Shown: positions 1,530 to 22,229, counted from the stretch's first letter. The stretch is DNA of 64,000 nt from an uncultured Actinomycetes bacterium (GCA_963702655.1 CAVPDO010000012.1:107204-171203); one strand, 5' to 3'. Program-made: numbers and translations. Notes: generated from the sequence alone by a model not told the origin.

Positions 1530-3394
<1,865 letters not shown>

Positions 3395-4638: not shown

Positions 4639-6198
4639 TCAGTAGCCGGGGCCGCCGAGGCCGTGCGTGGCCTCGAGCTCGCTCGGCCGACGAGTCTCCT
4701 CGCCGAGACGCGTCACCGGAATCGGCACCACCTGGCCGCCTGCCGAGCCGAACGCCGTCAACGCCCGGTCATGCAGCTCGGCGTAGGGCTCGACGACGGT
4801 CGCGGGCGCGCTGCTGCGCGTCGCCGACTCGCCGCGGACGACCACAGCAAACGTCCGCAGCAGGATCGCCAGGTCGACCGTCAGGCTCCGGTGCCGGAGG
4901 TACCAGAGGTCGTACGAGAGCTTCGTCGCGGTCTCCTCGGCACTGGCGGCGTAGCCGTCCCGGACCTGCGCCCAACCGGTGAGCCCGGGCTTGATCAGGT
5001 GGCGCCGTATCCAGAAGGGAACGCGATCGCTCAGCTCCTCCAGGAACTCGGGCCGCTCGGGCCGCGGGCCCACGAGCGACATCTCGCCGCGGAGCACGTT
5101 CCAGAGCTGAGGGAGCTCGTCGAGTCTGAGCTGCCGCATCACCGCGCCCGCGCGGGTCAGCCGCGGATCGTTGGCGCTGGCCCAGACGGCCGCTCCGGCC
5201 GCCTCGGCGTCGGCACGCATCGTCCGAAACTTGTAGATGGTGAACAGCTTTCCGTGCTCGCCGAGGCGAGACTGGCGAAAGATCAGCGGGCCGTCCGTCC
5301 GCAGGACGAACACCGCCAGCAGCGGGAAGAGCGGCAGCGTGAGGAGGAGCAGCAGGGACGCCCCGACCAGGTCGAGTCCGCGCTTCACGGCCCGCGAATA
5401 GCGGCGCCGATAGAGGTGCAGGACGCTCATGAACCAGTCGTGGGAAACATCCTCGATCGGAACGCGGCCGAAGGCGTACTCGTAGAACTCGGCGAGCTCG
5501 AGGACTCCGAAGCCGGCCTCGGCGGCGTCGAGGAGTCCGGAGATCGTCTCGGGCGTCCTGCGCCCGTCCGACAGGACGACGAGGTCCGGTTGATGCTCTG
5601 CGATGACCGCTGCGAGCTCCGGGAGGCGACCGCGCAGCAGCGCGTCCGGATCCCGCTCGTCCGGGTGCTCGGCGGCGTCGACGACGACGCCGACCAACTC
5701 GTAGCCGCCGTCGGAGGGCAGGTCCTGCAGCAGCGTCTCCGCCTCGGCGATCTCGCCGACCAGCAGGAGGCGCACGGCAGGCCGGAGCTTCCGCACCGCC
5801 AACACCTCCCAGGCCGCGGCGACGAGGAAGACGGTCAAGGCAACGAGCCAGATCGCGGCCACCGACAGCTGCATCCCCGGCAGCCCGGCCGAGACTGCCA
5901 TCGATGCGGCAACGGCGATCAGCACGCCCCGGCAGATCGCGACCTCCGGGCCGAGAGCAGTCAGCGAAGGGCCGCCGACGGCATGGCCGATGGCGATCGA
6001 AACCGCCCAGATCGGAACCAGGACAGCAGCGGCGGCGATGCGCTCGTGCCAGCTGTGCCCGGGCAGCACGAAGACGAGAGCGAGGACCGGCAAGACGACC
6101 GCGAGCACCCGTCCCGTCTTGCAAACGAGTGCTGCACGACGCCGGACCGAGCGACGCTGCGGCCCAGTGTCCACGTCAAAATCCCCTTCGCGACCCAC
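4639..6198 (-). CDS. Polyprenyl-phosphate sugar phosphotransferase (WbaP/EpsB-type priming transferase)
   Basis: N-terminal TM bundle plus the bacterial sugar transferase core: PLIFRQSRLGEHGKLFTIYKFRTM, DELPQLWNVLRGEMSLVGPRPERP, KPGLTGWAQV. Confidence 0.9.
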   Translation of the reverse strand: MGREGDFDVDTGPQRRSVRRRAALVCKTGRVLAVVLPVLALVFVLPGHSWHERIAAAAVLVPIWAVSIAIGHAVGGPSLTALGPEVAICRGVLIAVAASMAVSAGLPGMQLSVAAIWLVALTVFLVAAAWEVLAVRKLRPAVRLLLVGEIAEAETLLQDLPSDGGYELVGVVVDAAEHPDERDPDALLRGRLPELAAVIAEHQPDLVVLSDGRRTPETISGLLDAAEAGFGVLELAEFYEYAFGRVPIEDVSHDWFMSVLHLYRRRYSRAVKRGLDLVGASLLLLLTLPLFPLLAVFVLRTDGPLIFRQSRLGEHGKLFTIYKFRTMRADAEAAGAAVWASANDPRLTRAGAVMRQLRLDELPQLWNVLRGEMSLVGPRPERPEFLEELSDRVPFWIRRHLIKPGLTGWAQVRDGYAASAEETATKLSYDLWYLRHRSLTVDLAILLRTFAVVVRGESATRSSAPATVVEPYAELHDRALTAFGSAGGQVVPIPVTRLGEETRRPSELEATHGLGGPGY

Positions 6199-6327
6199 TC
6201 TACGGCCAGCGTAGAGAGGCGCCCAGCGCCAGACCCTAGACCAAAGACTAAGCCGAGCAAGGCCAAAGCGCCGTGGGCAAAACCGCTTTCGAACTACAGT
6301 CGAAGAAGAGGCTGCGTGCCCTCTCCG

Positions 6328-7125
6328 ATGACCAGTCCGTCAGTCGACACTCCACGGCTCTTCGAGCACAACCTCGACCCCGCTCTCTTCACGAGCGACC
6401 GCCTCGATGCTCTCTGTCGTGGCGCAGCCGAGCGGGGGTCGCTGAAGGTGCAATTCACGGATCCCGGACGCCAGCGCTACGGGAACGAACCCATCTACAC
6501 GCGACCCAGCTATCCCGTGCTCGAGGACGCGAGACGGCGACCGGTGCAGTACCGGATCATGGACGTGGACCACTTCGGAGGACCGGAGTACAAGGCCTGT
6601 CTCGACCACATCTTCGACGTCGGGGGCCCCGACCCGAGCCTTGGGCGGATCCGGCCCGAGACCGTCGTGCGCGTCTTCGCGCCCGGGGCAGTCGTCGCCC
6701 TCCACGGCGACCCTGATCTCAAGCTCGTCTCGACCCTCTCGGGGGAAACGATCTGGTGGGTGCGGCCGCCCGACGCGATGACGGACGAGGAGCACGAGAA
6801 CCTCCTGCGCGGCGGGTTCTTCCTCGACTGGCGGGACTGGGAGGACCAGGGACTCCGCATCCCGCCCGGCCAGGGGTGCTTCGTACCGTCGCGCTGGGCG
6901 CACTGGCTGACGCATCCATGCGACGAGCCGATCGTCAGCTTCGAGATCGGCTTCTGGTCGATCGCAAGCGTCCGGGCGCGCAAGGTGTACGACGTCAACT
7001 GGATGCTGCGCCGCGCGCACGTGGCCCCGGCCGGGCCCGGTGGCGATCGGGACAAGGTGAAGACCCTCGCGTTCGACGGCATCAGCACCGTCACGCGCAA
7101 GGGTGTCGCGTATCGCGGCATCTGA
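6328..7125 (+). CDS. JmjC/cupin-like putative Fe(II)/2-oxoglutarate oxygenase, paralog 1
   Basis: Only the ATG-6328 portion of the 4441..7125 ORF looks real. Candidate HxD...H triad (VALHGD ... RWAHWLTHP) in a beta-rich C-terminal half. Paralogous to 8335..9126. Confidence 0.65.
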   Translation: MTSPSVDTPRLFEHNLDPALFTSDRLDALCRGAAERGSLKVQFTDPGRQRYGNEPIYTRPSYPVLEDARRRPVQYRIMDVDHFGGPEYKACLDHIFDVGGPDPSLGRIRPETVVRVFAPGAVVALHGDPDLKLVSTLSGETIWWVRPPDAMTDEEHENLLRGGFFLDWRDWEDQGLRIPPGQGCFVPSRWAHWLTHPCDEPIVSFEIGFWSIASVRARKVYDVNWMLRRAHVAPAGPGGDRDKVKTLAFDGISTVTRKGVAYRGI

Positions 7126-7139
7126 GGTCGCGATCCATC

Positions 7140-8333
7140 GTGGACATCGACGCACTCGTACTCGACCTCGACACACGCGCCGGCCTCTGCATCGCCCGCA
7201 GCCTCGGACGTGCCGGCTACGCCGTGGCCGTCGCGGCCAGGGACGGGAGGGCCTCGGGCCTGACCAGCCGCTACGTGTCACGGCGGATCGTCCTCCCGGA
7301 CCCCGCCGTCGACTTCCACGACCACACGAACGCGCTGCTCGATGCGCTCGCCTCCCAGCGCCCCGACGCCGCACTCCCTTCGATCGACTCGAGCGTCGAG
7401 GTTCTGCACACGAACCGGGACGCCGTGGGCCGATTCACGGCGCCGGCGCTCGGAAGCTTCGAGGCGGTGGAGATCGCCCTGAGCAAGGAGCGGACGATCG
7501 AGATCGCCCGCTCGCTCGGCGTTCCCGTGCCGCGCTCGACCCGGGTCGAAAACCTGGCCGAGCTCGAAGCAGCCGTGGCCGACACCGGACTGCCCTGCGT
7601 GCTCAAGCCGGACCGCTCGTGGCGACCGTCCGAGGCAGGCGGCGAACGGCTCTCGCCGATCATCGTCCGCGACGCGGAAGAGGCGCGTCGGGTGGGCGCC
7701 GGCCTCGTCCGTGGCGACGCGCCGGTGCTGGTACAGGAGTTCGCGGTCGGAGACCGGGAGACGATCAAGCTCTTCCGCGCGGACGGACGAACGCTCGTGC
7801 GGATGGCGATGCTCGTCGACCGTGCCTGGCCTCCCCTGGGCGGGTCATCGGTCATGCGGCGCACGGTCAGCCCTCCGGAGGACGTTCTCGACCATGCCGA
7901 GCGGCTCGTCGCCGAGGTCGGTCTCGACGGCTACTCGGAGGTGGAGTTCCGGCGGGATGCGAGCGGCCGGCCTCTGCTGATGGAGATCAACCCGCGGATC
8001 TCGCAGTCGGTGGAGGTTGCGGTGCGGGCCGGTGTCGACTTCCCCCGGATGCAGTTCGAGTGGGCTCGCGGCGGCTCGATACCCGACCCGCCGGCCCCCG
8101 TCCTGGGACTGCGGGTGGGTTGGCTCGCGGGCGACCTACGCCTGCTCACGGGAGCTCTCGGCGCAGGCCCGCCGCCGCGGCCGAGCTTGTGGCCGACCGT
8201 CCGCGCGATCGCGTCCGACTACGTCGTCCACCATGCGCGGATCGAGGGATTCGACAGGCGCGACCGCAAGCCCGTGCTCGGATCGATCAGCTTCGCCCTG
8301 CGCAGCCTCACCGCGCGAAACGGCAAGGCCTAG
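7140..8333 (+). CDS. ATP-grasp carboxylate-amine ligase (predicted ATP-grasp enzyme family)
   Basis: GTG at 7140, in frame with ORF 6756..8333. Has LPCVLKP, VLVQEF and the ATP-grasp signature YSEVEFRRDASGRPLLMEINPRISQS. Confidence 0.85.
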   Translation: MDIDALVLDLDTRAGLCIARSLGRAGYAVAVAARDGRASGLTSRYVSRRIVLPDPAVDFHDHTNALLDALASQRPDAALPSIDSSVEVLHTNRDAVGRFTAPALGSFEAVEIALSKERTIEIARSLGVPVPRSTRVENLAELEAAVADTGLPCVLKPDRSWRPSEAGGERLSPIIVRDAEEARRVGAGLVRGDAPVLVQEFAVGDRETIKLFRADGRTLVRMAMLVDRAWPPLGGSSVMRRTVSPPEDVLDHAERLVAEVGLDGYSEVEFRRDASGRPLLMEINPRISQSVEVAVRAGVDFPRMQFEWARGGSIPDPPAPVLGLRVGWLAGDLRLLTGALGAGPPPRPSLWPTVRAIASDYVVHHARIEGFDRRDRKPVLGSISFALRSLTARNGKA

Positions 8334-8334
8334 C

Positions 8335-9126
8335 TCAGACGCCCCGGAACTCGCCGCCTTTGCGGGTGATCACGGTCATGGCGTCGAACACCCGGCGCTT
8401 TCGCTGGTCGTGGCTCTCGTTCTCGCCCGGAGGCCTCGGGGAGAGCTTCGCCTTCCGCATCATCCAGTTGACATCCCAGACCTTGCGGTTGCGAACGTCG
8501 TCGGCCGTCCAGTAGCCGACCTCGAAGCTCACCGCCGGGTCCGGGCCGGGATGCTCGATCCAGTGGGGCCAGCGCGGCGGTGCCGCGAAGCCGTCTCCCG
8601 GGTGGAGGTCGTAGGTGGCGAAGAGCGGCATCTCTCGCCACGGCACGAAGTGGCCGCCGCGCAGCAGGGCCTCGTTCTCCTCCTGCGAGAGACCGCTCGG
8701 CGGGTACACGTGCCAGTCGTTGCGACCGGCGAGGCCGCAGTCGAGCTGCGTCTCACCGTCGCCGTGGAGCGCGACGGGCACGTCGGGGCTGAAGACGCGG
8801 ATCACGGTCATCTCGCCGTAGCGAGGCTCGTCCTGGGGGATGCCTGCGGCCTCGAGCACCTGCTGGCGCGGTTCCCGGTACTCCGGAGCCCAGTCCGTGA
8901 GGTCGCTGAAGTGGACGTGGAGCGGCCGGGCGAGAACGTCCTCGGCGATCGGCTTCTCGAGCTTCGTCATCTGCGGGCCCTCGCCGGGCTGACGCTCGCG
9001 TCCCGCATCCGCGAGCTGCACCTCCGCCTTGCCCGGAGGGGCCTGGCGGAAGAGCCGGTCGAGCCTGTCGAGCGCGAACAGGTCGGGGTCGAGCTCGTGC
9101 CGGAATGCGTACGGCGCGTCGATCAG
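8335..9126 (-). CDS. JmjC/cupin-like putative oxygenase, paralog 2 (start codon unresolved)
   Basis: VALHGDGETQ ... RWPHWIEHP. Homology to paralog 1 (YAFRHELDPDLFALDRLDRL vs RLFEHNLDPALFTSDRLDAL) extends upstream of the first ATG (8970). No ATG/GTG/TTG lies in frame between there and the GNAT stop at 9123. Confidence 0.65.
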   Translation of the reverse strand: MIDAPYAFRHELDPDLFALDRLDRLFRQAPPGKAEVQLADAGRERQPGEGPQMTKLEKPIAEDVLARPLHVHFSDLTDWAPEYREPRQQVLEAAGIPQDEPRYGEMTVIRVFSPDVPVALHGDGETQLDCGLAGRNDWHVYPPSGLSQEENEALLRGGHFVPWREMPLFATYDLHPGDGFAAPPRWPHWIEHPGPDPAVSFEVGYWTADDVRNRKVWDVNWMMRKAKLSPRPPGENESHDQRKRRVFDAMTVITRKGGEFRGV

Positions 9127-10298
9127 TCGACCTTCGACGCCGGCTCGGAAGATCCTTGGCTCCTGCGCAGAGAGCCGAACCCGCCGAGGTACAGACGGTG
9201 GAGGCGCTCGGACTGCTTCAGCTTCTTGCGCAAGCGGAGAGACGTGAGCTGCTGGCGGGCGGCGAGGGCGCCAAGCGGATTCTGGGCCAGGCCGATCCCC
9301 TGGTAGAGAGGCTCCTCCAGGTCGGCGAGCTCGAGCTTGTAGCGCTCGTTCCCGCCGAGGAACTCGACGCGGGTCAGTCCGTCCTCGCTGGCAACTCGGA
9401 GCGTCTCGAGGGTCGCGACGAGGCCGGGAGAGTACCGCGCCAGATCGGGGTCGAACGCGAGCCGGTGCACCACCATCGTCCCGTCGAGCGCGAAGAAGTA
9501 GTGGAACGCCGCAGGCCGGCCGCCCACCCGCATGAGCACGATCCGCAGCACATCGTCGTCGGCGATGCGGCGCAGTGCGGCGCGGTGGAAGTCTCGGCCC
9601 TCCTCCGTTCCGAACGTCGACCCGTCCGGGCGGCCCTGCCAGCGCAGGTTGTGCAGGAGAAATGCCTCCTCGAGCAGCGGCTCCAGCTCCTCGCGCGTCC
9701 GCCCGACCTCGAACTCGACCTCGCCGACCTCGCCGAGCTGGCGCAGCCGCCGCCGGTGCAGGTTGCGCTTCTTGGAGCTCGTCTTCGCCTGGTAGGCGTC
9801 CTCCCAGCCGTTCGGCATCAGCAGGACGGGCGCCTCCACTCTTTCGATCACGCGCAGGCCGCCGGACGCCCCGAGCAGCGACGCCTGGGGAAGACCGAAG
9901 AGGTCCGCGAAGTCGAAGGCCTGCGACTGAATCCCTTCCCTCAGCAACCGGGCCGTCGAGTCCGGCTCGTCCTCGGCGATCAGCAGATCCGCCAGGGCAG
10001 ACTCGTGCGCGCCGAGAAAGCGGGCAGTTCTGACGCCCTTCCCCCGCCTGACGAAGAGCGGCGCGGCGCCGACGAGCCGCCCCTGCCGGCGGACGGTGAC
10101 CACCGCCAGGCGCTCTCCCGAGCCGCCGTAGTGGCGCCACCACTCGACAAGCCAGCCGTGGAGCAGGAACGGACTCGGTCGTGCCATCGCCCGGACGAGC
10201 GTGTCCCATTCGGGGGCGAGTGCCTCGAGTCGATCCGACGACTGCACTGTCTCGACAACAGCGTCTTCCCGACTCGACAATTCCACCTCGGAGATCAT
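9123..10298 (-). CDS. GNAT-fold acyltransferase of the FemAB/CelD-like type
   Basis: About 390 aa. Opens with a typical ...LEALAPEWDTLV...PFLLHGWLVEWW and has a C-terminal GNAT core (FHYFFALDGTMVVHRLAFDP, RYSPGLV, FLGGNERYK). Confidence 0.8.
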   Translation of the reverse strand: MISEVELSSREDAVVETVQSSDRLEALAPEWDTLVRAMARPSPFLLHGWLVEWWRHYGGSGERLAVVTVRRQGRLVGAAPLFVRRGKGVRTARFLGAHESALADLLIAEDEPDSTARLLREGIQSQAFDFADLFGLPQASLLGASGGLRVIERVEAPVLLMPNGWEDAYQAKTSSKKRNLHRRRLRQLGEVGEVEFEVGRTREELEPLLEEAFLLHNLRWQGRPDGSTFGTEEGRDFHRAALRRIADDDVLRIVLMRVGGRPAAFHYFFALDGTMVVHRLAFDPDLARYSPGLVATLETLRVASEDGLTRVEFLGGNERYKLELADLEEPLYQGIGLAQNPLGALAARQQLTSLRLRKKLKQSERLHRLYLGGFGSLRRSQGSSEPASKVD

Positions 10299-10311
10299 AG
10301 GAGAGCTGCCG

Positions 10312-11184
10312 TCAGGCCCTCGCGCTGTCGCCGTACCGGACGCTCCGGTATCGACCGCGCCCGAGCAAGGGGCGATCGTGCGACCCGGCGACCTTCGCCG
10401 TGAACGTGCGCAGGCTGTCGGTCGACTCGACCTGTACGCGGTGAATGAGGAACGGGTCGGTCTCCGCGCTGTTCAGTCCGGGCTCGCACGTCACTGCGTA
10501 GCGCAGTCCGGCTTCCCGCACCAGGTCGGGCTCACGCGGCCCGAAGAGGCCCGACGGGTAGCAAAAGGCGTGCGTCCCACGCTCGATCTGTCGTTCGAGG
10601 TCGACCTTGGATCCGGCGATCTCGTCCTGAGCCTCGACGTCGTCGAGTCGCCTCAGATCAGGGTGAGTCCTGCTGTGAGGCTCGAACCGCAGGACGCCGG
10701 AAGCCTCCATCCGGCGAATCTCCGCCCAGCTCGCCGTCGCCGCGTCCGGCGGCGCCCAGGTGTACTTGGCCTCGCCGTCGATGACGGCCGTGGAGACGAA
10801 GACGGTGGCGGTGAAGCCGAGTTTCGCGAGCACGGGCTGCGCGTTGTCGAGGACATCCTGGAATCCGTCGTCGAAGGTGAGCGCCACGGTTCGCGGCTCG
10901 AGCTCCCCCGCGTAGAGCAGATCGAGGGCCGTCACGGCGTCCAGAGCCCGGATGCCGCTGCTCGCCAGGTATTCCATCTGGGCCCGGAACTTCGCCGGGC
11001 TGAGCGCCAGCGAGTCGGGATCGTCGCTGATCCGGTGGTAGAGGAACACGCGCAGAGTGCCTCTCGGATCCTCGGACGACCGCCTCCAGCTCCGTACCCG
11101 TGCCTGCGTCAGAGCCGCCTTCGCGACGCGAGCCGCATACTGGGCGGCCGGTGCGCTGAGTAGGCTGTGCGGTCTCGATTTCAT
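10312..11184 (-). CDS. Polysaccharide deacetylase (NodB homology domain)
   Basis: VALTFDDGFQD, HSRTHPDL, FCYPSG motifs. Confidence 0.9.
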   Translation of the reverse strand: MKSRPHSLLSAPAAQYAARVAKAALTQARVRSWRRSSEDPRGTLRVFLYHRISDDPDSLALSPAKFRAQMEYLASSGIRALDAVTALDLLYAGELEPRTVALTFDDGFQDVLDNAQPVLAKLGFTATVFVSTAVIDGEAKYTWAPPDAATASWAEIRRMEASGVLRFEPHSRTHPDLRRLDDVEAQDEIAGSKVDLERQIERGTHAFCYPSGLFGPREPDLVREAGLRYAVTCEPGLNSAETDPFLIHRVQVESTDSLRTFTAKVAGSHDRPLLGRGRYRSVRYGDSARA

Positions 11185-11293
11185 CGGAATGCTGAGACCG
11201 CAACCCCTGCGGCTCGAGTTCTTATCTTAGTTTCATAAACGGATTTTTGAATACCCGCGCGCGGTGCGCGGAACCGGAAGGGCCTAGAGAAGA

Positions 11294-11968
11294 ATGCGCG
11301 ACATTCCCGCCGGCGTCGTCGTCGCCAAGCTGAGAAGACGACTGTGGTCCGCCCACAGGGCGGTCGTCGTCTCGCGCGATCTCCGGGACGAGCCGTCCTT
11401 GCCGCTGGACAGCATCCGGGTTGAGTTCGTCGATCCGGACGCCTTCGACGACCTGCCGCGACTCGTCGAACAAGCGACAGGCGTGGAGTACCTCTACCTC
11501 CGCCCGATCGAGCGCGCGCGCCAGGCGCGTGCCGGGACACTCTCGGTCGCCAGGGCCGCTGACGGCGATCTCGTCGCCTTCCACTTCGTGCACGAGTCTG
11601 GCGACCACGCCGCTCTCGACTCCGTCGCGCCCGGGATGTACCCGGTGCTGCCCGAGGACGGCGTGCTGACCGAGGAGGTCTACTGCCTGCCGGCGCATCG
11701 GGGCCGGGGCCTGGCGCCGGCGCTGCTGCAGGCGACCGGGGCGATGCTGCTCGAACGCGGCAAGCGACGCGCCTCGGCCTATCTCGACACGAACGTCATC
11801 CCGGCGCTGCGCATGTTCAACCGTGCCGGCTATCGCCCGACGGGACAGGAACGAGTCGATCGCTACCGCGGAGGCCGCTTCGACACCGTCTTCCGCGATG
11901 CGAGCCCGCAGACGCTGGCCGAGTGGGAAGCGGCGCTGAGCGGCTCGCGGGAACGGGCCGCCGGTTGA
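11294..11968 (+). CDS. GNAT family N-acetyltransferase
   Basis: Acetyl-CoA binding motif: HRGRGLAPALLQATGAMLLERG ... FNRAGY. Confidence 0.75.
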   Translation: MRDIPAGVVVAKLRRRLWSAHRAVVVSRDLRDEPSLPLDSIRVEFVDPDAFDDLPRLVEQATGVEYLYLRPIERARQARAGTLSVARAADGDLVAFHFVHESGDHAALDSVAPGMYPVLPEDGVLTEEVYCLPAHRGRGLAPALLQATGAMLLERGKRRASAYLDTNVIPALRMFNRAGYRPTGQERVDRYRGGRFDTVFRDASPQTLAEWEAALSGSRERAAG

Positions 11969-12402
11969 CTTCTTATCTCTTGCCCGCCGTGGATCCCTCC
12001 AGCTCGGACTCGATCGGAAGCGACTTCGTCCTGCAGGCCACGCTCGAGAACCCGTCGCTCAGACCGAACGTCATCAGCGGCGAACCCGTCGAGTCCAAGC
12101 TCGTCCTGTACTCCGACCGGTTCACCGAGATCGGGATCTGGGAGGTGACGCCCGGCTCGTTCCCCGCCAGCAAGGACGGCGTCTGCGAGCTGATGCAGTT
12201 CGTGGCGGGATCCGCGACCATCGTCGACGCAAACGGGGAGACGACCGTCGAACCGGGCGTCGTCATGTTCCTGCCGGACGGCTGGACGGGTACCTGGACC
12301 GTCCGTGAGACGGTGAGAAAGACGTACGCGCTCCATCACACGAGATCACGCGTCCGTCGAGGCGTAGCCGCCGTCGCCAGACGCGTACGCCGGCGCCTCT
12401 AG
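11923..12402 (+). CDS. Small cupin protein (resembles the DUF861/EutQ-like cupin_3 type)
   Basis: IGIWEVTPGSF...ELMQFVAGSATIVDANGETTVEPGVVMFLPDGWTGTWTV. True start is probably internal to the ORF. Confidence 0.7.
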   Translation: MGSGAERLAGTGRRLTSYLLPAVDPSSSDSIGSDFVLQATLENPSLRPNVISGEPVESKLVLYSDRFTEIGIWEVTPGSFPASKDGVCELMQFVAGSATIVDANGETTVEPGVVMFLPDGWTGTWTVRETVRKTYALHHTRSRVRRGVAAVARRVRRRL

Positions 12403-13572
12403 CGCTCGATCGCCTGGCGCACGCGCAAGGCCGAGAACTCCGCCCCGAGGACGAAGCGTGAGAGCGGCCCGAATCGGTGCTCGGCCGCATAGCCGACGAA
12501 GAACATGGTCGGGTCGCTCGACCGGAAGAACCGATCGATCACCGGCCAGCCGTTCCGGGTTGCGATGCGTCCGCGAACCTGCGGCCGAGAGAAACGACAG
12601 CCGGTCGAGGTCGAACCGGTAGCCGCACGCGATCAGAATGTGGTCGACCTCTCGCTCGGTCCCGTCGGTGAGACGCACCACGAGGCCGCCGGACTGCTGC
12701 TCTACGTGCTCGACGGTGTTGTGCTCGGTGACCCGGACGCTGCGCTCGACGAACCCCCGGAGCCAGGGCGAGCCGCCCGAGCGCAGGATCCGCGCCGTCA
12801 GCGAGCGCCGCGTTCGTTCCGGCAGCTTCGCGAACACGTCGGGCATCATCACGAGGCGGTTCAGCGGCGGCGGCCCGTAACCGACCACGGGATACGCCAG
12901 CCGGTAGAGCCTGGCCTGGACGCGGCCCCGCGGATAGTGCGGCTCGTGGTCTGCGAACCAGCGGACGGTGGACCGGGTGACGAGCTCGACCGTGCCGCCG
13001 GCCTGCGCCGCCAGCCCGGCGGTCTCGAGGCCCGCCTGCCCGCCGCCGACGACGAGCACGCGCTGGCCGGAGTGACGGCCTGCGTCCTCGATGCCGGTCG
13101 CGAGCGAGATCGACTCGCCGAGCTGTTCGGCCAGCCGCGGAGGGACGTAGGCGAAAGGCATGACCCCGACCGCGACGACGACGTGCTCCGCATCCACCTC
13201 GGCGCCCGCCTCGGTGGTCAGGCGATAGCCGCTCTCGCTCGACTCGACGGAAGCAATCCGGCTGGGGTCTCGGTCGTCGACGAAACGCTCCGCGAACCAC
13301 TCGCTGTAGCGGAGGAACATCGGGAGCGGAATCGGCTCGGTCCGGGACTCCTCTGCCTCCCGCACCCACTCGTCGAGACTGCCTGCGCCTTCGGGCGCCG
13401 AGAGAGAAGTCTCCTCCCAGGCCGATCGCATGAGCATCTCCTGCGGCATGCAGGTGCGCCAGGTCTCCATCTCCGCCCCGAACGTCCGCACCCTGCGCCC
13501 GCGCAGGTGCGCCGCCACGGAGAGCCCGAATGGGCCGGCGCCCACGACGGCGACGTCCAGCTTCTCTGCCAA
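12399..13572 (-). CDS. FAD/NAD(P)-binding oxidoreductase (flavin monooxygenase-like), +1 frameshift near 12579-12586
   Basis: VAVVGAGPFGLSVAAHL (FAD GxGxxG) and VLVVGGGQAGLETA (second dinucleotide fold). After ...DLDRLSFLS the coding signal moves to another frame (VRGRIATRNGWPVIDRFFRSSDPTMFFVGYAAEHRFGPLSRFVLGAEFSALRVRQAIER-TAG at 12399-12401). Length is 1 mod 3. Confidence 0.8.
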
Positions 13573-13651: not shown

Positions 13652-15175
13652 CTACAGGTGGCCTGTGGAGACGGAGACCGCGCCTGCATCGAGCTGGTAG
13701 GTGTTGTCGCTGATCGAGTTGGTGCCGCTGTTCTTGTAGGTGCCGATTCCGGCCCAGCTCTGGTTCGCGAACGTGACGCCGCTGATCGTGGTGGAGCCGG
13801 TCCCCTCGTCGAGGAAGATGCCGGCCGTGTGGCCGCCCTTGTTCCAGCCGCTCGCGTCGATCGTCCCGTTCTCGATCGTGTCGTTGCGAGCGGCTTCGTT
13901 GCCGGGCGTGCCGTCGTCCCACTCGGCGTTGAAGCCGACCTTCGAGCCTGTGATCGAGAAGTTCTCGAACGTGTCACCGATCGAGAAGTGCTCGAGATAG
14001 ACCGCGACACCGTCGTAGGCGTGCGGACCGCTCATGTCGATGTCGAGGTCGCTGAAATCGGTGTTCCAGGAGTTGTTACAGGTCTCGATCCCCGACCAGG
14101 AGACATTCCGGATCTTGATCCGGTGCACACCGTCGGCGACCGGCTGTCCGATCCAGAGACCCGCCTCGGACGTCCCGTTCGACGCGCCCGGCGTGCTGCG
14201 GCTGACACCGTCGACCGAGATGTCGCTGATCGACTGGATCGTCGGCACGCTCGCCCCGTAGGAGGCCAGTTGGTTGTTCGTCGCCCGGATCGCCGAATCG
14301 GTGAAGTCGCTGAACTGAAGCCGCTGTGCGACCAGACCGTCGGGGTTCAGCGCGAGCAGCCCGACGCCGACGTTCCAGTTTCCGTCGAACGTCGAGTCGA
14401 GGACCTGCGTCCCCTCGCCGGCGGCTCCCCAGATGTTGACCTCGCTGTTCTGGAAGGTCGCCGCCGAGTTCGTCACGTCGAAGGCCAGCCCGCGAATCAC
14501 GGCACCGCCCGACGAGTGGTTGCCGCCGACCACGAGGCCGGCCGTCAGGACCGCCCCCAGCGGATGCTGCGCATACAGGTCGCTGCTACCCGAGTCGTCG
14601 AAGTAGCTCGACCCGCCGTAGGTCCCGTCGGCCAGCACGATCGTCTTCGACCCTGCGGCCAGGGCGGACGTCAGCTGGGCCGACGACGACACCGACACTG
14701 CACCCGCGGGCACCGAGTAGGACCCAGGGGCAGCCGGTGGCGCCACCGCGCCGGGAGCGCCGGGCGACCCGGTCGGCGGCGGCGAGGTGGGAATCGTGGT
14801 GGGAGGTGTCGGAGTCGGGACCGGCGCCTGAGTCTTGTGCTTCTTGCGCGGTCCGCGATACCCCGCCGGCGAGCGATCCTGCCGAGCGCGCAGGTAGAAG
14901 TGCAACTTCTGCCAGGCCCACTGCGGAACCTGCTGCGGTGCGTGGCTCGGGCGTAGGTGGGGCTTGAGAGCGTCTCCCTTGGCATAGCCCTCGCCAAGAC
15001 GCCACTGCACCCAGCGCCAGTACCAGGCGGGAGCGGGCTTTGGCCCGATTCGCTTCTCCTGCTGGGCCGCAGACAGCTGATGCGACTGCGCGAAAGCGCG
15101 GGAGAGGAGAGCTGTGGAGCCCATGCCTGCACAGAGCAGCATGAGCACGACGACGGTTGCGAGTTGGTTGCGCAT
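13652..15175 (-). CDS. Secreted right-handed beta-helix protein (candidate polysaccharide lyase/glycanase)
   Basis: Signal peptide (MRNQLATVVVLMLLCAGMGSTALLSRAFA), a Pro/Thr linker, then repeated N/G/S/T-rich beta-helix-like coils. Confidence 0.7.
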   Translation of the reverse strand: MRNQLATVVVLMLLCAGMGSTALLSRAFAQSHQLSAAQQEKRIGPKPAPAWYWRWVQWRLGEGYAKGDALKPHLRPSHAPQQVPQWAWQKLHFYLRARQDRSPAGYRGPRKKHKTQAPVPTPTPPTTIPTSPPPTGSPGAPGAVAPPAAPGSYSVPAGAVSVSSSAQLTSALAAGSKTIVLADGTYGGSSYFDDSGSSDLYAQHPLGAVLTAGLVVGGNHSSGGAVIRGLAFDVTNSAATFQNSEVNIWGAAGEGTQVLDSTFDGNWNVGVGLLALNPDGLVAQRLQFSDFTDSAIRATNNQLASYGASVPTIQSISDISVDGVSRSTPGASNGTSEAGLWIGQPVADGVHRIKIRNVSWSGIETCNNSWNTDFSDLDIDMSGPHAYDGVAVYLEHFSIGDTFENFSITGSKVGFNAEWDDGTPGNEAARNDTIENGTIDASGWNKGGHTAGIFLDEGTGSTTISGVTFANQSWAGIGTYKNSGTNSISDNTYQLDAGAVSVSTGHL

Positions 15176-15345
15176 AGGCCCACTTGTCGGCTCGATGCGC
15201 GACGACCTTTAGCCCGGACCTATCAACAGGCGAGTCGGGTCCTATCCACGCGGACGGCCGGGGCGAGGCTCTTCGACAGCTCGCTCCCAAGGGATTTCTA
15301 AGGAGTACTCAAGCGTCGATCGACTTCGCCCGACATACGAGTACG

Positions 15346-17172
15346 ATGTCTGATCCCGCAAGACCTGCGCGTGCCTTTCCCTCCCCGCCTCACCAGGAGC
15401 TAACGCTGGAAACCCCGGAGAACGTCACAGACGAGGGCTCGGATCTGCGGGCGTTCCTGGCGCTCTTCCGTCGGCACGCCGTGCTGATCGCGGTGGTCAC
15501 GATCCTGACGGGAGTCATCGCGTACGCCGTGACGAGTCAGCAGGCGGCGCAGTACAGCAGCACGGCCGCGCTCGAGTTCACGGAGCCTGCGAACGCACCG
15601 GCAAATGCCGATCCGGCGCGCGACGTCAGCACTCTGGTGGGCGTCGGGACCTCGAGCTCGGTCCTCGATGCCGTGGCGAAGAAGCACGACATGACTCCGG
15701 CCCAGCTCCGCAAGGCGATCTCGGTGACGGGCAACCCGGACGCGGACCTGATCAGCATCTCAGCCACCTCCGGCTCGGCGACGGGAGCGGAGGCTCTCGC
15801 CCAGGACGTCGCGCAGGGGATGATCAACTACACGACGACGCAGACGCAGCAGTCACTGCGCGAGCAGATCGTGTCATTCGGTACCCAGCTGCAGAGGCTC
15901 GCCGGCCATACCGACGCGGTCTCGGTGGCCGCCGCATCCAACCTGCGCGTGCAGCTGGCGCAGGCGAAGGCCGAGCTGAGCAGCGCCACGTCTCCGCTGT
16001 CGATTCTCAGTCCGGCGACCGTCCCCTCCAGCCCCTCGTCTCCGCACCCGGCGCGCGACGCCGGAATCGCGCTGCTCGCAGGTCTTGTGCTCGCTCTCAT
16101 GCTCGCCGCCGTGCGGGACCGGCTCGACCGCCGGATCCGCGAGCTCGAGGACGTCGAGGCCGTCTACCACGCGCCGACGCTCGGCGTCGTGCCGTTCGCT
16201 CATGGGCGGAAGAAGCTCAGCCGCTCCAGCCAGGTCGCGGACTTCTCGGGGGCAGCTCCCCTGGCCGATGCCTACCGCACGATCCGCACCAACCTCACGC
16301 TCATGGAGACGCACCACGACGGGCCCTCCGTGATCGTCGTGACCTCGGCGATCGCCGGGGAAGGCAAGAGTGCCGTCACCGCCAACCTCGCCCAGGCGCT
16401 CAGCGTCACGGGGCGACGCGTGCTCGCCATCTCGGCCGATCTCCACAACCCGGCTCTGCACAAGTATTTCCCGGGCGGCTACCAGGAGAGCGACCTCTTC
16501 GGCGACGCCGAGGCCGACCCACTCCGCGAGAGAACGCTCGACGACCCGACGCTCAATGCGTACTTCTCGACCGGCTACGGCGGGGACGACGCGGAGAGCG
16601 AGCCCAAGCCCGATCCGCGCAGGCGACGCAAGGCGAGCGGTCTCGGTGAGAGGTGGACAGGGCCCACGAGGCCGCAGGGGCTCGTCCCGGTCCTGGCGGG
16701 CGAAGTCCCGTTGGACAAGGCCGTGTACGTCATCCCGCTGTCGTCCCAGGAGCGGGAGCGCGGAGGCTCGCTGCATCTGCTCGCCGACGGGGGCACCTTC
16801 TTCGATCCGGCCGCCCTGCTCAGCTCGGACGCGATGCGCCAGTTGTTCAAGGAGGCGAGCCAGAACTACGACGCGATCGTGGTGGACACTCCGCCGCTGC
16901 TCGCCAACGCGGATGCCACGCTCCTGGCGCAGAGCGCCAACATCCTCGTCCTCGTCGCCCGGCTCGACCACCTGACGCGCAACCAGGCCCGACGCGCCTA
17001 CCGCGCCATGATCTCGATGCGGCTCTCACCGTCCGGGGTCATCGTCACCGGCGAGGTCGAGGAAGGGGCCTACGGATACGGGTACCGGTCCAATCAGCCC
17101 CTCGAATACGATCGCGGTCTGGCCGGAGAGGCGCCGCAGCGGCGAGCCTCCACCAGCACCGGATCGTCGTGA
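15346..17172 (+). CDS. Polysaccharide co-polymerase (Wzz domain) fused to a BY-type tyrosine kinase
   Basis: Wzz-like N-terminus with a TM helix (HAVLIAVVTILTGVIAYAV). Walker A SAIAGEGKS, Walker A' VLAISADLHNP, Walker B YDAIVVDTPP, and a C-terminal Tyr cluster GAYGYGYRS. Confidence 0.85.
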   Translation: MSDPARPARAFPSPPHQELTLETPENVTDEGSDLRAFLALFRRHAVLIAVVTILTGVIAYAVTSQQAAQYSSTAALEFTEPANAPANADPARDVSTLVGVGTSSSVLDAVAKKHDMTPAQLRKAISVTGNPDADLISISATSGSATGAEALAQDVAQGMINYTTTQTQQSLREQIVSFGTQLQRLAGHTDAVSVAAASNLRVQLAQAKAELSSATSPLSILSPATVPSSPSSPHPARDAGIALLAGLVLALMLAAVRDRLDRRIRELEDVEAVYHAPTLGVVPFAHGRKKLSRSSQVADFSGAAPLADAYRTIRTNLTLMETHHDGPSVIVVTSAIAGEGKSAVTANLAQALSVTGRRVLAISADLHNPALHKYFPGGYQESDLFGDAEADPLRERTLDDPTLNAYFSTGYGGDDAESEPKPDPRRRRKASGLGERWTGPTRPQGLVPVLAGEVPLDKAVYVIPLSSQERERGGSLHLLADGGTFFDPAALLSSDAMRQLFKEASQNYDAIVVDTPPLLANADATLLAQSANILVLVARLDHLTRNQARRAYRAMISMRLSPSGVIVTGEVEEGAYGYGYRSNQPLEYDRGLAGEAPQRRASTSTGSS

Positions 17173-18611
17173 AGTCGCCGGTTCTCGCTCGCAGCCGACT
17201 GCGGCACGACGACGCCGCGTTCGCGGCCCTGACGCTCGTCTTCTGCCTCGTCTTCGGGATGCTCTTCGGGCGGCTCGACACGTTCGGGCTCTCGCCGGGG
17301 AAGGTCGCGATCCTTCCCGTCGCCCTGCTGTTTCTCCTCGCCGCCGGATGGTTTTCGCTCTCGCGGCCGGTGGTGGCGTTCGGTGTGGCCTTCGTCCTGC
17401 TCGGCATCGTCGACGTTCAGCCGGCGCCCGTCGATGCGTTCTTCGCCCTGCTCATCGCCACGACCGTCGCCACGGTCAGGACGCGGCCGAACATTCCCGC
17501 CTTCGTCGGCGTGCCGCTCGCCGCATTCGTGCTGTTGACGATCATCTCGATCACGAACGCCGTCGACCTGAAGCGGGCGATCTCGTTCGAGGGGATCACG
17601 CTCTACATGGTCATTCTCGGGGTCTGGCTGTCCTGGGCATTTGCCAAGCGCCGGTGGGTGCGCGTGGGGATGAAGTGGTACGTCATCGGAACCGTCGTCA
17701 GCGCCGCGCTCGGGCCGCTCGCCCTCTACGGCCACCTCTCCTCCAGGCTCGTCTACGAGAACAGCAGGGCCATGGGACTCTTCAAGGACCCCAACGTCTA
17801 CGGCGCCTTCCTGGTGCCTGCCGCGATCATTCTGCTCGACGAGATCGCCGAGCCCAGGCTCCTCGGGTGGCGTCGGCGCACCAATGTCGCGCTCTTCGCG
17901 ATCGTCTCGCTGGGCGTCGTCGTCTCGTACTCGAGGGCGGCGTGGCTGAACTACGCCATCGCCGTCCTGACCCTCGTCTTCGTCCAGTCCAACCGGCGCG
18001 GCGGACTGAGGCGCGCCGCCAGGAGCATTGGGATCCTCGTCGGGTGCGCCCTCGCAGGGCTCGCCATGCTCGCCGCGACCGGGTCACTGAGCTTCCTCCT
18101 CGAGCGCTCCCACCTTCAGACCTACGACCAGCAGCGGTTCTCGAACCAGGACGTCGCGTTCAGCGACATGTTTCGCCACGTCTTCGGCTTCGGTCCCGGC
18201 CAGACCGAGATCCTGCGGCCGCTCTCGACCCACTCGTCCTTCGTGCGGGCCGCGTTCGAACAGGGTTTTCTCGGCCTCGCGATGCTGGTGCTCGTGATGG
18301 TGACCACGCTCATCTGTGCGGTCCGTCTCGCGCGTCACACCGTCGAGGTCAACGGAGTCGGCACCGGTGCCCTGCTGGGGATCTGGCTGGGCCAGGTCGC
18401 GAACAGCTTCTTCATCGACACGCTGCACTGGCGCCATCTCTGGGTCTGGGCGGCGCTGATCTGGTGCTCGTACACGCTCATGGAACGACGCGAGTCGGCC
18501 GACGACGTGCCGCTCTCGCGTTCCTCCCTCGTGCCGGCAGGCGAACCTGCCGGCGCGCCGCGCAAACCTGTCGGCGCGCCACGCCTGGTCGTGCCGCGCC
18601 AGGCTCGCTGA
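17169..18611 (+). CDS. O-antigen ligase/polymerase-like (Wzy-type) membrane protein
   Basis: GTG at 17169 overlaps the upstream stop (GTGA). About 10-12 TM helices with a YSRAAWL-type Wzy_C loop. Confidence 0.8.
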   Translation: MKSPVLARSRLRHDDAAFAALTLVFCLVFGMLFGRLDTFGLSPGKVAILPVALLFLLAAGWFSLSRPVVAFGVAFVLLGIVDVQPAPVDAFFALLIATTVATVRTRPNIPAFVGVPLAAFVLLTIISITNAVDLKRAISFEGITLYMVILGVWLSWAFAKRRWVRVGMKWYVIGTVVSAALGPLALYGHLSSRLVYENSRAMGLFKDPNVYGAFLVPAAIILLDEIAEPRLLGWRRRTNVALFAIVSLGVVVSYSRAAWLNYAIAVLTLVFVQSNRRGGLRRAARSIGILVGCALAGLAMLAATGSLSFLLERSHLQTYDQQRFSNQDVAFSDMFRHVFGFGPGQTEILRPLSTHSSFVRAAFEQGFLGLAMLVLVMVTTLICAVRLARHTVEVNGVGTGALLGIWLGQVANSFFIDTLHWRHLWVWAALIWCSYTLMERRESADDVPLSRSSLVPAGEPAGAPRKPVGAPRLVVPRQAR

Positions 18612-18615
18612 AGCG

Positions 18616-18927
18616 CTACTCCGTTGGCGGCTGCGGCGACTTGCGCGTCGCGCGCTGCAGGCCGAAACCGGCAACGATGAGCAGGACGCCCGCCAGAGCG
18701 ACGAAGCCGAGATCGAGGCCGGTGAACGGCAGCTGTCCGCCGCTGGCCGTGGCCGCATCCACCTGCGCCGAGTCCACCTGCTTGACATTCACCTGCTTGA
18801 CAACGGACGTGCCCTTCTTGCAATAGACCTTGCACATCGTCCCGTTACCCGCCAGGGCCGAGGCAGCGAATACGGACGCCGCGGCGAGAGCCAGCGTCAA
18901 CACAATCCCTTTTCTCGATCTGCTCAT
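18616..18927 (-). CDS. Small secreted LPXTG-type sortase substrate
   Basis: Signal peptide (...ASALA/GNG), a roughly 40-aa mature region with CKVYC, then LPFTG plus a hydrophobic helix plus RATRK. Confidence 0.7.
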   Translation of the reverse strand: MSRSRKGIVLTLALAAASVFAASALAGNGTMCKVYCKKGTSVVKQVNVKQVDSAQVDAATASGGQLPFTGLDLGFVALAGVLLIVAGFGLQRATRKSPQPPTE

Positions 18928-21221: not shown

Positions 21222-22229
21222 GTGGCGGCCCACGGCGAAGGGCCGCTCAAGACGGCTGCTGCGCGACTCGATGTCCCCTTCTTCCCGCTCGTTCAGGTGC
21301 GAAGGAGCGTGTCGCCGATCCACGACCCTCTCGGCATCGTCGAGCTCACGAGGCTCTTCCGGCGCCTGCGCCCCGACGTCGTTCACCTGAACAGCTCCAA
21401 GGCCGGCGTGCTGGGCAGGATCGCCGCGGTCGCCGCCCGGGTACCGGTGCGGATCTTCACCGCCCACGGCTGGGCCTTCAAGGCGGCGTCCGGGGTGGAT
21501 TCGCGTCTCTATCTCCTCGCCGATCGTGGCGTCGAGCCGTTGACCTCGATGGTGATCTGCGTCTCGGAGAACGAGCGACGCGCGGGGCTCGCGGCCGGCG
21601 TGTGCACCGGGGATCGCTCGGTCGTGATTCGCAATGCCGTCGACGTCGGAGCCGCTCCGTCCCGTACTCGCGGAGATGACGCGCCGGTGCAGGTCGTGAG
21701 CGTCGGCAGGCTGGCCGCGCCGAAGGATTTCGCGACGCTCGTCGCGGCGGTCGCCCGCCTGCCGGAAGGCCGCGCGCACCTCCGCGTCTTCGGCGACGGG
21801 CCGTTTCGCAGCGAGCTCGAGGCGCAGAAGCAGGCGCTCGGACTCGACGCCGCGGTGGAGTTCGCCGGCGAGGTTCCCGATGTGCGGCCACACCTCGAGG
21901 ATGCCGACGTGTTCGTCCTCTCGAGTCTCTCCGAAGGCATGCCCGTCTCCATCCTCGAGGCGATGGCCGCAGGCCTGCCCGTCGTCGCGAGCGCCCTCCC
22001 CGGCCTCGAGGAGGTGGTCGTCGACGGCGAGACGGGACTCCTCGTCGCGCCCGGCGACGCCGCCGCCCTCGCAGCCGGGCTCGGCCGGCTCGTCGACGAT
22101 CCTGCCCTGAGGCGCTCCTTGGGGACGGCCGGACGCGCGCGCGCCGAGGAGCACTTCTCACTGCCGGCCTGGCGCGACGCGCACTTCTCGCTCTACCGCT
22201 CGCTGCTCGCCGCCAGAGGCGCCCCGTGA
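21222..22229 (+). CDS. Family 4 glycosyltransferase (homology extends upstream to ~21123 without a canonical start)
   Basis: GT4 C-terminal EGMPVSILEAMAAGLPVVAS...GETGLLV. The upstream in-frame PLILFVVTLAEVGGAQSYVRDL matches a GT4 N-terminus, but no ATG/GTG/TTG lies between the TAG at 21072 and 21222. Confidence 0.9.
   Translation: MAAHGEGPLKTAAARLDVPFFPLVQVRRSVSPIHDPLGIVELTRLFRRLRPDVVHLNSSKAGVLGRIAAVAARVPVRIFTAHGWAFKAASGVDSRLYLLADRGVEPLTSMVICVSENERRAGLAAGVCTGDRSVVIRNAVDVGAAPSRTRGDDAPVQVVSVGRLAAPKDFATLVAAVARLPEGRAHLRVFGDGPFRSELEAQKQALGLDAAVEFAGEVPDVRPHLEDADVFVLSSLSEGMPVSILEAMAAGLPVVASALPGLEEVVVDGETGLLVAPGDAAALAAGLGRLVDDPALRRSLGTAGRARAEEHFSLPAWRDAHFSLYRSLLAARGAP

Follow-up and report, generated by a model that had tools for sequence, protein, structure and literature searches.

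A candidate glycan-tailoring module of JmjC-type cupins, an ATP-grasp enzyme and a FemAB-like acyltransferase in a Gaiellales polysaccharide locus

Introduction

Why would a bacterial polysaccharide locus carry two JmjC-like cupin paralogs on either side of an ATP-grasp enzyme, next to a FemAB/CelD-like acyltransferase and a NodB-type deacetylase? The question is raised by a stretch of 64,000 nucleotides from an uncultured Actinomycetes bacterium (GCA_963702655.1 CAVPDO010000012.1:107204-171203), here called the window, with positions counted from its first letter. The GC content of the window is ~70%, and its ATP-grasp protein is 98% identical to a protein from a Gaiellaceae metagenome-assembled genome (MAG; P0388). 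The charge, metal binding, adhesion and antigenicity of bacterial polysaccharides depend largely on decorations other than sugars, and to our knowledge few of the genes for attaching N-acyl and aminoacyl groups have been assigned.

The analysis points to a cytoplasmic tailoring set of a Wzy-dependent exopolysaccharide (EPS) pathway in a Gaiellaceae bacterium, a reading to which we give an even chance. The module most likely adds hydroxylated, amide-linked groups to sugars. At its center is a JmjC-type family linked to FemAB-like acyltransferases by adjacency, translational coupling and fusion, mostly in polysaccharide loci. Such a link would carry JmjC chemistry beyond proteins and tRNA, its substrates to date, into glycan tailoring, and it offers a hypothesis that can be tested for Acetyltransf_6 proteins without an assigned substrate, such as HfsK.

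Gene content of the module

The genes of the module are given below in their order along the window.

6328-7125, + strand: cupin-1, 265 amino acids (aa), 14 nucleotides upstream of the ATP-grasp gene
7140-8333, + strand: ATP-grasp enzyme, 397 aa, GTG start
8335-9126, - strand: cupin-2, 263 aa, paralog of cupin-1
9123-10298, - strand: FemAB/CelD/HfsK-like Acetyltransf_6 GNAT, 391 aa, PF13480
10312-11184, - strand: NodB/CE4 polysaccharide deacetylase, 290 aa, PF01522
12346-13572, - strand: two-dinucleotide-binding flavin monooxygenase, class B or N-hydroxylating-like, 408 aa

An earlier sequence-only reading of this stretch had placed the first five genes at these coordinates, and the codon-position GC contents there are typical of coding sequence (GC at third codon positions of 0.85-0.91). 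The two convergent operons that it described do meet at 8333/8335, with stop codons 1 nucleotide apart. Absent from it were the flavin monooxygenase at 12346-13572 and the cross-phylum link between GNATs and cupins described below. Judged by their family matches, the surrounding genes make the locus a Wzy-dependent polysaccharide cluster; they are listed in the last section.

The point of convergence of the ATP-grasp and cupin-2 genes reads TAG-C-TCA (8331-8337), with no terminator-like structure found, and transcripts from both strands must overlap or read into each other there. A scan of 6000-11500 for promoters and terminators gave nothing beyond chance.

Fold and metal site of the cupins

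Sequence comparison of cupin-1 and cupin-2 showed 41% identity over 264 aligned residues (E=6e-66). The paralogy claimed for the C-terminal 120 residues thus extends over the full length, and the motifs quoted in support of it are present in both proteins (VALHGD..., W(A/P)HW(L/I)xHP and ...TRKGxx(Y/F)RG(I/V)). Cupin-1 has no match in Pfam or NCBIfam, and cupin-2 has no family above threshold in either (the best is Cupin_2, 16.4 bits vs. 27.2). Among 30 family members, JmjC_2 was matched by three and Cupin_8 by two, all weakly (best E values of 0.0049 and 0.057), alongside scattered weak Cupin_2 matches. A search of 5.8 billion proteins gave 137 relatives, all hypothetical, of which the few named ones are from Gaiellaceae.

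Neither cupin meets the Pfam gathering threshold for Cupin_8, JmjC or JmjC_2, so that homology to these families is transitive only. A family profile searched against 1.84 billion representative proteins matched 564 clusters at E<=1e-3. The next tier of matches (E of 1e-16 to 1e-10, 280-335 aa, full-length) consists of true Pfam Cupin_8/JmjC_2 proteins, whose hosts include Planctomycetota and Acidobacteriota and whose annotations read 'JmjC domain-containing' or 'cupin-like'. Among PDB sequences, the profile reached KDM2A and a cupin-type phosphoglucose isomerase only at E ~0.06, which is an alignment hint and not evidence.

The AlphaFold model of cupin-1, built with 30 sequences, has a predicted local distance difference test score (pLDDT) of 95.1 and a predicted template modeling score of 0.91. 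In a Foldseek comparison of the cupin model with the PDB, the 50 best matches are all JmjC enzymes (E of 8e-11 to 3e-8, probability 1.00, TM by query of 0.42-0.57), with B. subtilis YxbC, NO66, YcfD, MINA53, TYW5, JMJD5, KDM2A, PHF2, JMJD6 and FIH among the top matches. JmjC proteins were again matched in a viral structure library. A check proposed earlier, of JmjC against sugar-isomerase cupins, therefore comes out on the JmjC side, with the metal ligands in place.

The candidate 2-His-1-carboxylate triad that had been proposed for both cupins is fully conserved: H126, D128 and H192, together with H196, are invariant in 29/29 cupin-1 and 20/20 cupin-2 orthologs (49 in total). H126, D128 and H192 align with the H-x-D and P-H-W motifs of the Cupin_8 relatives, and the distal His also aligns with that of KDM2A. 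H126 closes a predicted strand (122-126), and H192 falls within a later one (191-195); we take these strands to be beta-II and beta-VII, the usual positions of the JmjC triad. The cupins are thus predicted to be JmjC-type double-stranded beta-helix proteins and putative Fe(II) oxygenases. Sugar-isomerase or RmlC-like cupins were considered as candidates and rejected, since the triad is invariant and the structural matches are all of the JmjC kind.

The fold and the H-x-D...H triad are shared with the JmjC/Cupin_8 hydroxylases that depend on Fe(II) and 2-oxoglutarate (2OG; FIH, YcfD/RoxA, NO66, MINA53, TYW5 and YxbC). In comparison with these enzymes, the window cupins carry a conserved C-terminal helical extension (RKVYDVNWxLRR...PPG...D..K), have Thr or Asn in place of the G-x-K Lys, Lys or Gln in place of the N-F Asn, and an invariant R115. 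They also differ in context, which is polysaccharide tailoring rather than modification of the ribosome, tRNA or transcription factors. Cupin-1 and cupin-2 form separate orthologous groups, indicating that the duplication is older than the divergence of these lineages. Pocket residues specific to each paralog (K132/T141/R146 in cupin-1; Q132/R140/N141 in cupin-2, with N/T141 across its orthologs) would fit two different substrates for the two proteins.

Conservation of the module in Gaiellales

A scan of one genome per GTDB species found 27 loci, and the counts below refer to the 21 with full 10-kb flanks. Within 10 kb of cupin-1, the ATP-grasp gene is present in 19/21 loci, the deacetylase in 18/21, and the GNAT, the flavin monooxygenase and cupin-2 in 17/21 each. 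Direct adjacency is also frequent: cupin-1 stands beside the ATP-grasp gene in 17 of the 21 loci, the ATP-grasp gene beside cupin-2 in 13 and cupin-2 beside the GNAT in 12. The cassette is thus kept as a unit in species-level loci of Gaiellales, here an order of soil actinobacteria, as the sequence-only reading had asked of its neighborhood. The gene order is shuffled in several lineages (L005, L028 and L030) with the gene set still together, and the adjacency of the flavin monooxygenase to other module genes varies between loci. The accessory genes of the window are rarer; Cupin_3 was found in 5/21 loci by tblastn (in L001 and L004 by Pfam), and the small Acetyltransf_1 GNAT in 2/21. Each locus that was read gene by gene had priming transferase, Wzy_C, Wzz-kinase or GT4 genes nearby.

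All 27 loci are from uncultured Gaiellales, Thermoleophilia or Actinomycetota MAGs except for one label. The MAG of locus L007 is labeled 'uncultured Acidobacteriaceae bacterium'; the locus is syntenic with the Gaiellaceae window and 84-91% identical to it in protein sequence, and is probably a mis-binned contig or one with a wrong taxonomic label.

A Gaiellaceae variant without cupin-2 was seen in L001/L009 (3600-9900). Beside the flavin monooxygenase and Cupin_3 genes, it encodes a 388-aa protein without a Pfam match, an Acetyltransf_6 protein, a thiamine-diphosphate enzyme and a Formyl_trans_N protein, a gene content that suggests a different acyl substituent in that lineage.

Coupling of the acyltransferase to the cupins

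The cupin-2 gene has no ATG, GTG or TTG start codon anywhere in 9126-9500. Its orthologs in L008 and L013 have ATG at the position where the window, L006 and L007 read ATC. The sequence CTGATC, the CTG of which overlaps the TGA stop codon of the GNAT gene, is identical in three independent assemblies; a sequencing error was considered as the cause of the absent start and rejected on this identity. Because CTGATC is conserved in this way, a non-canonical coupled start is indicated, and translation of cupin-2 probably begins at CTG 9126 (or ATC 9123), coupled to termination of the GNAT.

A similar pairing was found outside Actinomycetota. This cross-phylum association comprises four contexts and five fusion proteins, with named records in Planctomycetota and Acidobacteriota. 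In 4/4 contexts of distant Cupin_8/JmjC relatives, an Acetyltransf_6 gene lies beside the cupin gene or near it in the same EPS locus. It is immediately upstream of the cupin in two contigs, one from Blastocatellia and one in which an encoded protein is identical to a Rubinisphaera brasiliensis record. In a JGI contig, one locus holds Acetyltransf_6, DegT, GT4, Cupin_8 and Wzy_C genes. In a contig of 49% GC (L034) the order is Asp_Arg_Hydrox, Acetyltransf_6, Cupin_8, with the last two genes overlapping, and the EPS locus also has a CE4 deacetylase, GT4, a sulfotransferase, Wzy, Wzz and a priming transferase. The two domains are fused in both orders, as Acetyltransf_6 then cupin (P0194 and P0227) and as cupin then Acetyltransf_6 (P0211). 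In two further fusions (P0231 and P0258) an Acetyltransf_1 domain precedes the cupin; the window, too, has a small Acetyltransf_1 gene (11294-11968) near the module.

Three observations argue for a substrate shared by the GNAT and the JmjC-type protein: their cross-phylum proximity, the fusions in both orders and, in the window, the overlap of stop and start codons. This coupling appears undescribed.

In L034, which is non-actinobacterial, the gene directly before the Acetyltransf_6-Cupin_8 pair (5739-9011) belongs to the Asp/Arg beta-hydroxylase family (PF05118), and a second Acetyltransf_6 gene is nearby. By its family match, this is another Fe oxygenase, not related to the JmjC-type one, that has been recruited to the acyltransferase.

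The partner enzymes

The ATP-grasp family assignment agrees with PF15632 (ATPgrasp_Ter, 48.4 bits vs. a cutoff of 29.1, E of 1e-12) and with the structural comparison. Its AlphaFold model has a pLDDT of 93.6, and 24 homologs all share K156, E282, N284 and R286, among them the Lys that binds ATP and the E-x-N ligands of Mg2+. The three-domain fold and the conserved Lys, E-x-N and Arg are shared with the stand-alone 'carbamoyl-phosphate-synthase-like' proteins (PRK12767, 2pn1), the type to which the enzyme is assigned, and with RizA/PylC. The protein is far below all cutoffs of the NCBIfam ATP-grasp equivalogs and has its own C-terminal helical extension of ~90 residues. The enzyme had been read as a ligase that makes amide bonds; the fold in this claim is certain, whereas the amide chemistry is one option beside bicarbonate activation, the chemistry of the nearest structures.

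The alternative is that the enzyme is a bicarbonate-dependent carboxylase or carbamate-forming enzyme of the PurK type, or of the type of carbamoyl phosphate synthase (CPS), acting on the amine freed by the deacetylase, with the rest of the module working as proposed below. We consider it unlikely. It agrees with the top Foldseek and sequence matches, which are the CPS large subunit, PurK and biotin carboxylase (Foldseek E of 1e-18), and with the best NCBIfam match, a PRK12767-like 'carbamoyl phosphate synthase-like protein' (63 bits vs. 218, below cutoff). However, no ATP-grasp structures are more abundant in the PDB than those of CPS, PurK and biotin carboxylase. RizA and PylC, which are amino-acid ligases, follow closely (E ~3e-17 to 8e-17, within a factor of ~100), and the best target coverage belongs to 2pn1, an orphan stand-alone enzyme that is also among the best structural matches (TMt 0.75, r.m.s.d. 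3.6 Å). Neither a biotin-carrier nor a glutaminase partner is present.

The GNAT matches PF13480 over profile positions 1-142 of 143 (118.6 bits vs. a cutoff of 22, E=3.1e-34), consistent with its earlier description as FemAB/CelD-like, and has no PF02388 FemAB match in Pfam. FemABX and MurM, as described in two reports, have a tandem-GNAT fold related to Acetyltransf_6 and transfer an amino acid onto the amine of a lipid- or nucleotide-linked cell-wall precursor (PMC2655667, PMC5362036). The window GNAT differs from them in its family and in its acceptor, presumably an EPS sugar and not a peptidoglycan stem peptide. PDB sequence searches with the GNAT, the flavin monooxygenase and the Cupin_3 protein returned no informative relatives.

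The deacetylase, called NodB-type from its sequence, matches PF01522 (Polysacc_deac_1, 73.7 bits vs. 23.1, E=1.7e-20), and its translation holds the metal/catalytic motifs TFDDG and HSRTH. It matches the IcaB, PgaB and HfsH models of NCBIfam weakly. The flavin monooxygenase matches Pyr_redox_2, Pyr_redox_3, NAD_binding_9 and Lys_Orn_oxgnase (E=1.6e-11) in Pfam and has two Rossmann motifs.

No membrane segment or signal peptide was predicted in any of the tailoring enzymes, whereas the priming transferase, the Wzz-kinase and a neighboring beta-helix protein do have such segments. The tailoring chemistry is thus placed in the cytoplasm, which would fit the need for ATP, acyl-CoA or aminoacyl-tRNA, and NAD(P)H.

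Proposed pathway

A known pair of enzymes offers a comparison. In Caulobacter, one report describes the deacetylase HfsH and the FemX-like GNAT HfsK, whose donor is unknown, as jointly tuning the cohesion of the holdfast, an N-acetylglucosamine-containing adhesin; HfsK is proposed to re-acylate deacetylated holdfast sugars (PMC5362036). The window likewise pairs a cytoplasmic CE4 deacetylase with an Acetyltransf_6/FemX-like acyltransferase in a Wzy-type pathway. A JmjC-type cupin, ATP-grasp or flavin monooxygenase partner is not mentioned in the passages of that report consulted here (PMC5362036). The window deacetylase scores 13.5 bits against the HfsH model NF050820, which has a cutoff of 400; it is not an ortholog, and the analogy is one of logic.

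All steps of the proposed pathway would take place on a nucleotide-linked or undecaprenyl-pyrophosphate-linked sugar, before flipping. The NodB deacetylase would take off an N-acetyl group and expose the sugar amine, which the FemAB-like Acetyltransf_6 protein would re-acylate, with acyl-CoA or aminoacyl-tRNA as the donor of the acyl or aminoacyl group. Cupin-2, translationally coupled to the GNAT, would then use its Fe(II) site and O2 to hydroxylate the attached group, much as FIH, YcfD and NO66 hydroxylate amino-acid residues at C3. The ATP-grasp enzyme would activate a carboxylate and ligate a second amine or carboxylate partner, and its neighbor cupin-1 would hydroxylate the product. Finally, the flavin monooxygenase would add a further N- or C-oxygenation. 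The hydroxylated amino-acid or peptide decoration that the sequence-only reading suggested, for a glycan or an envelope protein, remains a putative reading of the chemistry.

Several observations weigh against this pathway. In structure the cupins are closest to hydroxylases of proteins or tRNA rather than of glycans, and the closest structures of the ATP-grasp enzyme activate bicarbonate. Cupin-2 is absent from four Gaiellales loci, and the Blastocatellia GNAT-cupin pair lies outside an EPS locus. The hosts are all uncultured MAGs, and the glycan-tailoring chemistry is read from sequence, models and context.

A further point of this kind concerns the cosubstrate. The beta-IV Lys binds the C5 carboxylate of 2OG in FIH and JMJD enzymes. 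In a joint alignment, the Cupin_8 relatives share the FIH-like motif H-x-D-x-E-x-N-F-L-x-Q-x-x-G-x-K. The Lys of G-x-K, which is nearly invariant in these distant relatives, is T141 in cupin-1 (28/29 orthologs) and N/T141 in cupin-2, and the Asn of the N-F motif is Lys in cupin-1 and Gln in cupin-2. K229 of KDM2A, presumably its 2OG-binding Lys, occupies the same alignment column as residue 141. Since the canonical 2OG-binding Lys is replaced, 2OG dependence is uncertain. R115, which is invariant in the Gaiellales cupin family and absent from the Cupin_8 relatives, stands at a position that we take to line the pocket by comparison with FIH; it may replace the beta-IV Lys in carboxylate binding, and K132 and R189 are other possible substitutes. 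The pocket appears to be remodeled, and the cosubstrate is uncertain. The loss of the Lys with retention of the iron triad poses a defined cosubstrate question.

A broader form of the proposal, which we regard as doubtful, is that a FemAB-like GNAT with a dedicated JmjC-type oxygenase would be a widespread undescribed unit, adjacent or fused, in Actinomycetota, Planctomycetota and Acidobacteriota, putting hydroxylated acyl or aminoacyl groups on polysaccharide amino sugars. In Gaiellales the unit would be duplicated and coupled to the ATP-grasp enzyme and a flavin N-monooxygenase, yielding siderophore-like (beta-hydroxy-amino-acid or hydroxamate) metal-binding EPS decorations, with Arg115 replacing the beta-IV Lys.

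Alternative functions

Besides bicarbonate activation by the ATP-grasp enzyme, three alternatives were considered. Each is less supported than glycan tailoring, mainly because the sugar deacetylase is co-conserved and the EPS context is persistent.

The module might instead modify a protein of the envelope or the EPS machinery, with the cupins hydroxylating residues, the GNAT acylating a lysine or an N terminus and the ATP-grasp enzyme adding amino acids in the manner of RimK. The nearest cupin structures are all protein or tRNA hydroxylases (YxbC, NO66, YcfD, MINA53, FIH, JMJD5/6 and TYW5), and the GNAT matches, though at a score far under the model's cutoff (E=2.9e-15), the NCBIfam model of BspF, a crotonyltransferase of proteins. 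The position of the Blastocatellia pair would also suit a protein target, as would a sortase and an LPFTG substrate within the same window. However, the loci read gene by gene are all EPS clusters despite the shuffling of gene order, with a sugar deacetylase co-conserved in 18 of the 21, and EPS genes (DegT, GT4 and Wzy) also surround the distant pairs of L034 and the JGI contig. No conserved candidate gene for a target protein accompanies the module. A protein target is therefore improbable.

Still less probable is a free siderophore-like or signaling small molecule, made by a route independent of non-ribosomal peptide synthetases. The ATP-grasp and FemAB-like enzymes would form amide bonds, the flavin N-monooxygenase and GNAT a hydroxamate, and the cupins beta-hydroxy amino acids, the EPS genes being mere neighbors. 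Fe(III) ligands are classically made in two ways, by an N-hydroxylase working with an acyltransferase or by an Fe oxygenase that carries out beta-hydroxylation; the Lys_Orn_oxgnase match of the flavin monooxygenase and the Asp_Arg_Hydrox gene adjoining the distant pair in L034 agree with these routes. However, the loci read gene by gene showed no exporter, receptor or uptake genes conserved with the module, whereas the polysaccharide deacetylase and the EPS context are conserved and the adjacency of the flavin monooxygenase to the other genes varies.

That the cupins are not oxygenases but metal-dependent isomerases/epimerases or non-catalytic binding subunits of the ATP-grasp enzyme and GNAT, as the lack of a Pfam match above threshold, the missing 2OG-binding Lys and the weak profile matches to cupin-type phosphoglucose isomerase might suggest, is very improbable given the triad invariant in 49/49 sequences, top structural matches that are all JmjC oxygenases and full-length homology to Cupin_8 proteins with a complete FIH-like motif.

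Relation to described systems

The gene combination had not been recognized as a described pathway, and the searchable literature agrees: a search on JmjC, cupin, ATP-grasp, FemAB, deacetylase, EPS and Acetyltransf_6 found no description of the combination, with the HfsK/HfsH analogy as the only useful result. The component families are known. Apparently new is a JmjC-type subfamily tied to FemAB-like acyltransferases in polysaccharide loci and duplicated in Gaiellales together with an ATP-grasp enzyme and a flavin monooxygenase. A literature search on Gaiella and exopolysaccharide found no EPS study among the papers listed, and Gaiellales surface chemistry appears undescribed.

Other genes in the window

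The accessory genes and the polysaccharide genes around the module are as follows.

4639-6198, - strand: priming polyprenyl-phosphate glycosyl-phosphotransferase (PF02397, E=6e-63; TIGR03025, 335.9 bits vs. a cutoff of 295.6), five hydrophobic segments
11294-11968, + strand: small GNAT N-acetyltransferase (Acetyltransf_1), accessory (PF00583 and PF13508, E=1.4e-5)
11923-12402, + strand: small EutQ-like cupin (Cupin_3), accessory (PF05899, E=5.4e-13)
15184-17172, + strand: Wzz/BY-kinase (Pfam)
19052-20947, - strand: Wzy_C polymerase/ligase-like protein (Pfam)
21222-22229, + strand: GT4 glycosyltransferase (Pfam)
22226-23590, + strand: Wzx-type flippase (Pfam)

Adjoining the module, 13652-15175 on the - strand encodes a 507-aa protein with a signal-like N-terminal hydrophobic segment and a weak right-handed beta-helix match. 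Its relatives lie beside the module in L004/L017, L006 and L012 (tblastn), and L005 has a Pel9A-like beta-helix protein (Pfam). The product may be a secreted lyase or depolymerase that acts on the same polysaccharide.

Between the Wzz-kinase and Wzy_C genes lies 17171-18611 (+ strand), part of an open reading frame (ORF) that spans 16653-18611 in frame. Its downstream part is strongly hydrophobic, as in a multi-pass membrane protein, and the 479-aa stretch encoded by 17171-18608 has no Pfam match at E<=0.001. The product could be a second, divergent polymerase or ligase.

A 103-aa secreted protein is encoded at 18616-18927 (- strand). Its C-terminal LPFTG, hydrophobic stretch and RATRKS form a classical sortase sorting signal, and the polysaccharide locus also has, at a distance of 5 kb, a sortase gene (23639-24340, + strand; PF04203, E=7e-21).

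An FtsH-like protease gene at 1530-3334 (- strand) is broken into ORFs in three frames (1979-3334, 1666-2907 and 1530-2024). In the closely related locus L006, the syntenic position (5210-7208) holds single ORFs of 642 and 644 aa. The window sequence near 2030, GGCAGCCGATCC, resembles an insertion of one base in the expected FtsH-like frame; the split reflects either indel errors in the window assembly or a pseudogene.

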